Origin: Escherichia coli
GTDB lineage: Bacteria; Pseudomonadota; Gammaproteobacteria; Enterobacterales; Enterobacteriaceae
Strand: one strand, 5' to 3'
Assembly (NCBI RefSeq): GCF_003334815.1
Contig: NZ_QOWO01000079.1
Length of the DNA: 3,892 bases
The notes under the pieces: model-generated
What the model was told of the DNA's origin: nothing
The model's database searches: none
The model's input: only the letters and a program-made list of their open reading frames with translations
Position numbers and translations under genes: made by a program
In this document: positions 793 to 1,169 of the stretch, piece by piece
How positions within the stretch are numbered: position 1 is the first letter of the stretch
How the letters are laid out: the number at the start of each line of letters is the position of its first letter

Positions 793-842
793 AGCTGCGG
801 GCGCTTGAGGCTGTATGCCGAAAGCGTTTTGTGGACGGTATA

Positions 843-902
843 CAGCAGAAAGCCCCTGGAGATTTTTTTATCAATCAACCAAGGGCTCTACTGTAATGCT
901 TC
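843..902 (-). ncRNA. pndB: Candidate Sok/PndB antisense RNA (~60 nt) complementary to the mok translation-initiation region
   Basis: Minus-strand perfect -10 TATAAT (plus coords 909-914) places the start near 901-902. The transcript would cover the mok ATG (896-898) and its SD (881-885). A 9-bp stem (879-887 with 851-859, including one G-U pair) is followed by a U-rich tract (CUUUCUGCUGU). Boundaries are approximate. Confidence 0.5.
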
Positions 903-1099
903 GACAACATTATAGTAGCCCGATAACCGCCGTAAGGCAATGGAGGGGCTATGATGCCACAGCGAACGTTTTTAATGATGTTAATCGTCATCTGTGTGAC
1001 GATTCTGTGTTTTGTCTGGATGGTGAGGGATTCGCTTTGCGTACTCCGGCTCCAGCAGGGAAACACAGTGCTTGTGGCAACGTTAGCCTACGAAGTTAA
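896..1099 (+). CDS. pndC: Mok/PndC-like overlapping reading frame (translational coupler for the toxin gene)
   Basis: ORF in a different frame that overlaps almost the whole toxin gene, as in hok/mok loci. ATG at 896 gives 67 aa, with AAGGG 10 nt upstream. The longer six-frame ORF from 815 would start only ~16 nt into the transcript and is less likely. Confidence 0.5.
   Translation: MLRQHYSSPITAVRQWRGYDATANVFNDVNRHLCDDSVFCLDGEGFALRTPAPAGKHSACGNVSLRS
909..940 (-). promoter_or_regulatory. Candidate sok/pndB promoter
   Basis: Perfect TATAAT on the minus strand (909-914). The only TTG-containing -35 candidate (TTGCCT, 935-940) is 20 bp away, which is suboptimal spacing. Confidence 0.4.
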
Positions 1100-1106
1100 A
1101 CGTTAA
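951..1106 (+). CDS. pndA: Hok-family type I toxin (PndA-like small membrane toxin), 51 aa (50 aa if the second ATG at 954 is used)
   Basis: Translation MMPQRTFLMMLIVICVTILCFVWMVRDSLCVLRLQQGNTVLVATLAYEVKR has the Hok/Gef architecture: one N-terminal TM helix, a conserved R-D/K-SLC motif and a TLAYE C-terminus. It most closely matches PndA as I recall it. GGAGG at 942-946 is 7 nt before the ATG at 954. Confidence 0.85.
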   Translation: MMPQRTFLMMLIVICVTILCFVWMVRDSLCVLRLQQGNTVLVATLAYEVKR

Positions 1107-1116
1107 CGGGCAACAC

Positions 1117-1146
1117 GGCGGCAGGTTTTCTGCCGCCGCTTTGTTG
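1117..1146 (+). terminator. GC-rich hairpin with U-rich tail in the hok 3' UTR (stability or terminator element)
   Basis: CGGCGGCAG (1117-1125), loop GTTTT, CTGCCGCCG (1131-1139), followed by CTTTGTTG. It lies 11 nt after the hok stop codon. Confidence 0.45.
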
Positions 1147-1156
1147 CGAAGGCTGA

Positions 1157-1169
1157 CCTCATTGCGCCC
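1157..1169 (+). promoter_or_regulatory. fbi-like 3' element of the hok mRNA, complementary to its 5' end
   Basis: CCTCATTGCGCCC (1157-1169) pairs with GGGCGCTTGAGG (799-810): 6 bp GGGCGC/GCGCCC plus 4 bp GAGG/CCTC around a small internal loop. This is the arrangement described for fold-back inhibition in hok mRNAs. Confidence 0.45.

Follow-up and report, generated by a model that had tools for sequence, protein, structure and literature searches.

The DNA analysed here, a stretch of 3,892 nucleotides from Escherichia coli (the window), contains between positions 758 and 1175 a locus which its sequence identifies as pnd of the IncI1 plasmids, a homologue of hok/sok. It consists of the toxin gene pndA, the overlapping mok-like frame pndC and the region of the antisense RNA PndB. 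The features recognised at the locus are the following.

765-792, + strand: putative promoter of the toxin mRNA, proposed from sequence (-35 TTGTTG at 765-770, 16-nt spacer, -10 TAGAAT at 787-792, start at G799)
799-810, + strand: tac, the mRNA 5' end (799 is position 1 of Rfam model RF01794), with fbi as predicted partner in the full-length RNA and ucb in the 3'-truncated RNA
800-828, + strand: predicted early 5' hairpin of the metastable type, tying up tac in the nascent transcript (in-silico folds; analogue in R1 hok, PMC9841398)
810-846, + strand: 11-bp leader hairpin, lying inside the tac/ucb stem in the open form (folds and Rfam consensus structure)
849-859, + strand: ucb (anti-SD box), partner of 879-887 in the closed form and of 799-806 in the open form
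851-887, + strand: SD-sequestering hairpin with a T7 run in its loop, of which the inner part (857-881) is retained as the antisense-target hairpin
846-908, - strand: candidate PndB-like (Sok-type) antisense RNA with approximate ends, placed by analogy with Sok
896-1099, + strand: pndC, mok-like frame of 67 codons (ATG at 896 within the ORF 815-1099; SD AGGG at 882-885)
954-1106, + strand: pndA, toxin gene (50 aa, Hok/Gef family; SD GGAGGGG at 942-948)
1110-1147 (core 1116-1138), + strand: GC-rich 3' stem-loop, probably a 3'-exonuclease block and the end of the processed mRNA
1157-1169, + strand: fbi (fold-back inhibitory) element, complementary to tac
1170-1179, + strand: T-rich tract TTTCTTCTTC directly after fbi, a possible 3' end region of the full-length RNA

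The PndA protein matches the Pfam family PF01848 (HOK_GEF) over residues 7-46 with an E-value of 8.7e-12. RefSeq labels the coordinates 954-1106 'Hok/Gef family protein', and in one record a 96%-identical protein is annotated as 'protein PndA'. An additional ATG is present at 951, just ahead of the pndA start. The pndC frame overlaps pndA in a different reading frame and ends with a stop codon at 1099; its ATG is kept in the other pnd variants. Its product matched no family in Pfam, which fits the view that the translation of mok and not its product is what matters (PMC9841398).

Identity and plasmid setting of the pnd locus

The region 700-1200 is found with 100% identity in many E. coli plasmids, and most of it is present in 1140 of 5426 complete E. 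coli genomes, nearly always on a plasmid. Over 790-1200, the identity is also 100% to ColIb-P9 of Shigella sonnei (NC_002122.1) and to Salmonella and Klebsiella plasmids, and Shigella plasmids, too, are among the carriers of the identical locus. The 100% identity of the pnd region to ColIb-P9 and many IncI1 plasmids extends over 411-501 nt. In an annotated IncI1 plasmid, the region is flanked by trbA, with trbB, trbC and nikB beyond, and by a hypothetical ORF of 83 aa. Together with the 'protein PndA' label of the 96%-identical protein, the plasmid identities and the IncI1 neighbours assign the locus to pnd of the IncI plasmid complex. An earlier note on this DNA, made from the letters alone, had used the names hok and mok; the family was thereby recognised correctly, but the specific locus is pndA/pndC/PndB of IncI1 and not hok/mok/sok of R1. 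According to PMC3562002, pndA of R483 is a homologue of hok and comes with tac, a frame of the mok type and the pndB antisense RNA. The pnd loci of R483 (IncI-gamma) and R16 (IncB) have the same order of elements as the window, namely promoter, tac, ucb, target hairpin, pndC SD, pndC/pndA, 3' stem and fbi.

The Rfam model RF01794 matches 799-956 on the + strand over its entire length (model positions 1-157 of 157), with 131.7 bits (gathering score 59) and an E-value of 4e-31. The family is named 'sok', yet it matches the toxin-sense strand here, from the mRNA 5' end to the toxin AUG, and is thus effectively a hok-type leader.

With the exception of the antisense promoter, which is only a candidate, all sequence-level defining features of the hok/sok-type family that were checked are present at 758-1175. 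It is very probable that this segment is an intact pnd locus, a type I toxin-antitoxin module of the hok/sok family for post-segregational killing, operating by the change from tac/fbi to tac/ucb pairing set out below. The module could instead be a decaying remnant that has lost control of its toxin and whose structures persist only by recent common descent. Insertion sequences do crowd the window: ends of the IS3 family occupy 1-137 and 3756-3892, and an IS66-family element extends from 1485. Elsewhere, IS elements or an intron have broken up several hok loci, and one IncI1 plasmid has a toxin-less remnant of the pnd leader. However, 758-1175 is free of interruptions, with the ORF, both SDs, tac, ucb, fbi and the 3' stem all intact, and it is identical to the copies in hundreds of conjugative IncI1 plasmids. 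Furthermore, according to a preprint (bioRxiv 10.1101/2025.08.07.668861), PndA of R483 is toxic and the native locus mediates post-segregational killing. We consider decay extremely unlikely. The IncI1 pnd addiction module in the window appears complete, as every RNA element of the hok folding pathway is present, and the annotation of 758-1175, where RefSeq names the toxin only by its family, should be extended to pndA/pndC and PndB as the antisense RNA, and should also show tac, ucb and fbi.

Pairing of the mRNA ends

Homologues were sampled by tblastn on plasmids. Seven pnd variants (L002-L008) were obtained from IncK2/Z, IncI-gamma/K1 and IncI1/B/O plasmids, and distant loci of the Hok family from Photobacterium (L009), Vibrio (L010), Providencia (L011), srnB-like IncF (L012 and L014) and hok-R1-like (L018 and L022) sources, so that six lineages were covered: pnd variants, Photobacterium, Vibrio, Providencia, srnB-like and hok-R1-like. 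All of these loci gave a full-length RF01794 match. Seven other fetched loci were left out of the end-pairing test, as their 3' region was replaced (L013), IS421 was inserted after the 3' stem (L015), IS150 lay in the leader (L016 and L017), a group II intron followed the stop codon (L019), or the leader was partial (L020) or unmatched (L021).

Homology of the window to all seven pnd variants starts at 758 or 763 and ends at 1168 or 1175, at the final base of the 3' element or 7 nt past it, which indicates that the conserved unit runs from the promoter to fbi. The DNA of the IncI-gamma and IncK variants is ~90-92% identical to the window over 758-1175, and the toxins of the IncI-gamma, IncK and IncB/O variants are 88-90% identical to its PndA. 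Past fbi, the sequence of the window is unrelated to that of the other pnd variants.

The earlier note had claimed that 799-810 pairs with 1157-1169, and had read this complementarity as the fold-back that keeps full-length hok mRNA inert. In the fold of lowest free energy for 799-1169 (-160.1 kcal/mol; z = -7.1 relative to 100 shuffles), GGGCGC at 799-804 pairs with GCGCCC at 1164-1169 in a helix of 6 bp, and UGAG at 806-809 pairs with CUCA at 1158-1161 in a second helix of 4 bp. An internal loop with U805 opposite U1162/U1163 separates the two helices, and a fifth pair of the second helix, G810-C1157, is found in the isolated duplex only. The predicted probability of the tac/fbi pairs is 0.97-1.0 when the RNA ends at 1169 and 0.99-1.0 when its 3' end is placed at 1172 to 1260, so that the claimed pairing is borne out at a probability of ~1.0 for all 3' ends from 1169 to 1260.

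Within the sequence of the window alone, the signal for this complementarity is only moderate. When the 14-nt 5' end was compared with the 200-nt 3' UTR, 11 of 1000 shuffles bound equally well, although the true 5' end was the top 3' UTR binder among all 14-mers in 799-1106. The second-best 14-mer, at 845-858 (-20.9 kcal/mol), appears by eye to pair with the loop and the 3' arm of the 1116-1138 hairpin and was judged to do so by chance.

The main support for tac/fbi is comparative and strong, as the two elements covary across the homologues. In each intact homologue, a strong complement of the first 12-14 nt (-19.6 to -26.3 kcal/mol) is located 50-76 nt past the toxin stop codon, at mRNA position ~345-398. 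In an alignment of 14 sequences, the seven-pair core of tac/fbi is 90.8% paired and three of its pairs are altered on both sides. The covariation score of 0.297 was reached by none of 500 shuffles (0.155 +/- 0.023), and slid-partner controls scored 0.127 at most. The fourth pair is C-G, U-A or A-U depending on the lineage and the sixth is C-G or U-A; C1169 is replaced by U in the IncI-gamma and IncK lineages with retention of a G.U pair. When 5' ends and 3' UTRs were compared in a cross matrix, the 5' end of a lineage generally preferred its own 3' UTR or that of a sister locus. The exceptions were one srnB-like row, which was marginal, and, among the pnd variants with their one common 5' end, a single base that varies.

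The window has the IncI1 (ColIb-P9-type) allele of pnd, in which fbi reads CCTCATTGCGCCC, compared to CCTCAATGCGCC(C/T) in the other variants; this difference results in a slightly larger internal loop (-21.7 kcal/mol vs -23.5 kcal/mol in the other variants). The srnB locus of plasmid F belongs to the same family and has complementary 5' and 3' ends equally far past the stop codon, but its tac/fbi pair is GGGUGU/ACACCC, which represents compensated changes, and its toxin is only 43% identical. Coupled covariations in the hok mRNA family are the subject of a 1997 paper, as cited in PMC9841398, and our comparison, made with current plasmid sequences, restates the covariation of the paired ends that had been reported for this family in the 1990s.

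The position of the mRNA 5' end was deduced from the Rfam match and from the putative promoter. In most lineages, a -10-like hexamer (TAGAAT, TATAAT or TATTAT) ends 6-7 nt ahead of RF01794 position 1, which supports a start at ~799; in the loci of Vibrio and Providencia, this hexamer is weak or unclear. In a consensus promoter scan, the candidate at 765-792 scored below the threshold.

The SD-covering helix and the antisense strand

Within the leader, 851-859 (AGCCCCUGG) pairs with 879-887 (CCAAGGGCU) at 8 of 9 positions, with a mismatch C856.A882. The resulting hairpin encloses T863-T869, and its 3' arm covers AAGGG at 881-885, 10 nt ahead of the pndC ATG at 896. Its pair probability in the full-length ensemble is ~0.4-0.76. 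The window has more of these pairs than the other pnd variants, in which 6 or 7 are formed. When the arms were anchored on the CCCC and SD motifs, the ucb/SD helix was found in 16 of 16 loci, in most of them with the C.A mismatch. Among 11 distinct homologues, 6 of the 9 pairs are altered on both sides, and the covariation score of 0.246 (shuffles, 0.108) was reached by none of 500 shuffles.

This hairpin is the published pairing of ucb (anti-SD) with the mok SD in the closed full-length hok mRNA (PMC9841398). The C.A mismatch in the SD/anti-SD stem is also found in hok/sok of R1, where the SD is GAGG; as the SD in pnd is AGGG, the mismatch is shifted by one position. In R1, closing the equivalent mismatch by the substitution A106G abolishes toxicity (PMC9841398).

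Structure prediction and the published hok structures thus agree with the earlier note both on the end pairing and on a hairpin at 851-859/879-887 that encloses a T7 run and occludes a mok-like SD. The conservation of these structures, which that note had assumed without seeing it, is now evident from the comparison, since both helices are kept in every intact locus examined in the six lineages, with compensatory changes in each.

On the opposite strand, the inverted repeat 851-859/879-887 would also provide the main stem-loop of the putative antisense RNA. The minus-strand complement of 851-887 folds into a long uninterrupted stem-loop of -25 to -26.5 kcal/mol, followed by UUUCUG; the stem is uninterrupted because the C856.A882 mismatch of the mRNA becomes a G.U pair. 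By analogy with Sok, this stem-loop would fit the body and terminator of a PndB RNA of ~60 nt. Upstream on this strand lie hexamers resembling a promoter, -35 TTGCCT (940 to 935) and -10 TACTAT (917 to 912), separated by a 17-nt spacer. The motif AGGCAA, the complement of the antisense -35, is nearly invariant across the lineages in the alignment. In the consensus promoter scan, this putative promoter was below the threshold, and the antisense gene is for that reason a deduction from the family.

These observations raise the question of whether the inverted repeat matters only on the minus strand, as the stem-loop and terminator of PndB, the mRNA hairpin being a by-product without a regulatory role. 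The minus-strand stem is the stronger one and is not interrupted, and the covariation of an inverted repeat cannot separate the two strands; the 11 aligned rows contain no G.U pairs on the + strand. However, the substitutions A106G and C74T in R1 strengthen the SD/anti-SD pairing of the mRNA and abolish toxicity although the truncated mRNA is still made (PMC9841398). In addition, the 5' arm also serves as the partner of tac, both in the Rfam consensus and when the truncated RNA is folded, which is sensible only on the mRNA strand. A function restricted to the minus strand is thus very unlikely, and a dual use of the inverted repeat on both strands is the more likely reading.

Predicted folding switch and proposed control of toxin synthesis

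The effect of 3' truncation was followed in silico through the ensemble probabilities of the alternative helices.

3' end at 1169 or beyond: tac/fbi ~1.0; tac/ucb 0.00; ucb/SD 0.55; SD/dcb 0.40
Truncated to 1147-1156: tac/fbi absent; tac/ucb 0.61-0.86; ucb/SD 0.27-0.39; SD/dcb 0.47-0.64

The minimum-free-energy fold of the truncated RNA is the Rfam consensus structure, in which 799-806 pairs with 850-856, the target hairpin 857-881 is formed and the SD pairs with the downstream box. Truncation to 1140 or to 1160-1163 left the closed form in place and did not yield the open form. As ucb/SD reaches only ~0.55 in the closed form, the thermodynamic model gives a shift and not a clean switch, and the predicted direction of this shift is that of the published change from full-length to truncated hok mRNA.

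The folds also predict an early structure in the nascent transcript, in which 800-806 pairs with 822-828 and 809-811 with 817-819. This hairpin is present in the minimum-free-energy folds of 799-826 to 799-840, 799-900 and 799-956, and in the two longest of these it coexists with the closed SD hairpin. In these models it matches the metastable structure of R1 hok (PMC9841398).

Reading 799-1169 as a fold-back inhibited mRNA, as the earlier note did, agrees with the location of RF01794 position 1 at 799, with the compensatory changes in a 3' complement placed 50-76 nt past the stop codon, and with the reproduction of the published switch by in-silico trimming. Following the literature on the family, the mRNA would start at about G799, and its first 12 nt (tac) would pair with 1157-1169 (fbi), closing the ~370-nt RNA into a stable and inert form. 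In this closed form, ucb (851-859) would pair with 879-887 and cover the pndC SD, and translation of pndA would require that of the overlapping pndC. Slow 3'-to-5' trimming back to the stem-loop 1110-1147 would remove fbi; tac would then pair with ucb (799-806 with 850-856) and free the pndC SD as well as the antisense-target hairpin. The freed RNA would be bound by the short-lived PndB antisense RNA and destroyed, whereas in plasmid-free cells it would be translated into a membrane toxin.

The elements and the order of these steps are those of hok/sok (parB) of R1, with which pnd shares the mechanism, tac/fbi, ucb, dcb, the mok and Sok elements and the Rfam leader family; tac/fbi, ucb, dcb, the metastable hairpin and 3' processing are all known for hok (PMC9841398). 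The toxins themselves are more distant, as R1-type Hok is only a distant match to PndA and a related IncHI2 Hok is 38% identical. A similar principle is found in the aapA1/IsoA1 system of Helicobacter pylori, in which an inert type I toxin mRNA has its SD unmasked by 3'-end processing (PMC5416894), but the sequence and the toxin family are unrelated and the likeness is one of mechanism only. The control structures described here are already known: they are established in hok of R1 and have been reported in pnd of R483. The analysis therefore adds little that is new, as a regulatory architecture already described has been correctly recognised in a plasmid gene that is likewise known.

The 3' end of the toxin mRNA

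The core hairpin 1116-1138, with the tail CTTTGTTG, is the sole canonical terminator-like hairpin on the + strand between 600 and 1500, and it lies upstream of fbi. The toxin transcript might end there, in which case 1157-1169 would be outside the mRNA and its complementarity to the 5' end due to chance or to another purpose; the single-sequence significance of that complementarity, only ~1%, leaves room for such a view. The comparative data speak against it, since in six lineages the 3' complement is found equally far past the stop codon, covarying with the 5' end, and since the homology block of the pnd variants ends at 1168/1175 and not at 1147. Moreover, hok-R1-type loci have an equivalent hairpin with a UUUUC tail which also precedes fbi, and in these loci the processed mRNA ends with this stem (PMC9841398). 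An end of the toxin transcript at 1116-1138 is extremely unlikely.

By analogy with R1, the 1116-1138 hairpin is likely to protect the processed mRNA as its 3' stem. All lineages have an equivalent hairpin after the stop codon, and in hok/sok of R1, as in pnd, it is placed between the stop codon and fbi. Mutations that weaken the R1 hairpin destroy the processed species, and 19 of the substitutions that cause loss of function disrupt a C-G pair of this terminal stem (PMC9841398). The functional boundary of the module is neither the stop codon nor the first hairpin, but fbi.

In loci of the R1 type, fbi is followed by a separate canonical terminator, a hairpin that the pnd type lacks, and the terminator scan found no canonical terminator on the + strand of the window from fbi to 1500. 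The T-rich tract at 1170-1179, as read from the sequence, is a possible place for the full-length RNA to end, and a comparable tract, TTTTTT or TTGTTTGTCTTTTTT, follows fbi in the other pnd variants. As pnd-type loci have no separate terminator and the T tract abuts fbi, fbi itself might form the terminating helix, either with tac or transiently with the local GGGC at 1108-1111, although we regard this as unlikely. The local partner, which would give a Y-shaped terminator, occurs in the local fold of one pnd variant (L002) and not in that of the window, is absent outside the pnd group, and was retained only as part of this termination proposal. Should the fbi helix nevertheless terminate transcription, the release of the transcript and its closure into the inert mRNA would be one coupled event.

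The inverted repeat in the leader and its two strands

The hairpin that sequesters the Shine-Dalgarno sequence in the toxin mRNA (851-887) contains a conserved C.A mismatch at 856/882, which reads as a G.U wobble in the complementary, putative PndB-like antisense RNA (minus strand 846-908). Since the C.A of one strand is the G.U of the other, a single inverted repeat yields an mRNA stem that is weaker by design, and an antisense RNA stem that runs without interruption. The Rfam family RF01794, although named 'sok antitoxin', matches the toxin-sense strand at 799-956, and this match extends from the 5' end of the mRNA to the toxin AUG. 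A match to RF01794 thus indicates a hok-type leader and not the strand of the antisense RNA.

Related leaders and interrupted loci on other plasmids

A second pnd-like leader was observed on an IncI1 plasmid that also carries pnd:

L001 8023-8150 (NZ_CP029110.1, about 10545-10672): pnd-like leader remnant lacking a toxin gene

This remnant is 79% identical over 144 nt and 93% identical over the last 75 nt. It keeps the promoter region, a 5' end resembling tac (the 5'-terminal element of the mRNA) and the antisense-target region, and ends just beyond the -10 element of the antisense promoter.

Insertion sequences break up several of the fetched hok loci, namely three located on IncHI2 and IncF plasmids (L015, L016 and L017). 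In L015, IS421 is inserted just 3' of the 3' stem, the stem-loop between the toxin stop codon and fbi (the 3' complement of tac). IS150 is inserted in the leader of L016 and L017, the Rfam scores of which are down to 32-34 bits. A fourth locus, on a Salmonella plasmid, contains an intron:

L019 698-845 (NZ_CP077707.1): group II intron (RF02012, 111.6 bits)

According to the tblastn coordinates, this intron starts approximately 40 nt past the hok stop codon, where the 3' stem and fbi are normally located, and the complement of the 5' end was not found at its usual place in L019.

The region downstream of fbi and the ends of the window

A terminator hairpin is clearly present 3' of fbi in hok-R1-type loci, whereas no canonical intrinsic terminator was found after fbi on the plus strand of the window between 1170 and 1500. 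All that directly adjoins fbi there is a T-rich tract (1170-1179). The adjacent ORF is convergent with the toxin gene:

1178-1429, minus strand: 83-aa ORF

This ORF, with its stop codon 8 nt away from fbi, matched no NCBIfam family, and it is annotated as hypothetical in IncI1 plasmids. A toxin transcript reading through past fbi would be antisense to this ORF.

Colinearity with the IncI1 backbone ends at ~1485, where an IS66-family element starts:

1485-3755: IS66-family element, beginning at its GTAAGCG end (~1485)
1570-2220: tnpA
2220-2576: tnpB
2588-3277 and 3258-3758: tnpC, split in two frames

The two ends of the window, 1-137 and 3756-3892, match each other as perfect inverted copies (137 nt, 100% complementary). 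Their sequence comes from the terminus of a multi-copy IS3-family element, the end of which reads TGAACCGCCCCGGG. These copies interrupt trbA at 138 and cut off the IS66-family tnpC at 3755. The window is therefore either a segment flanked on both sides by the IS in opposite orientations or a contig ending within a repeat.
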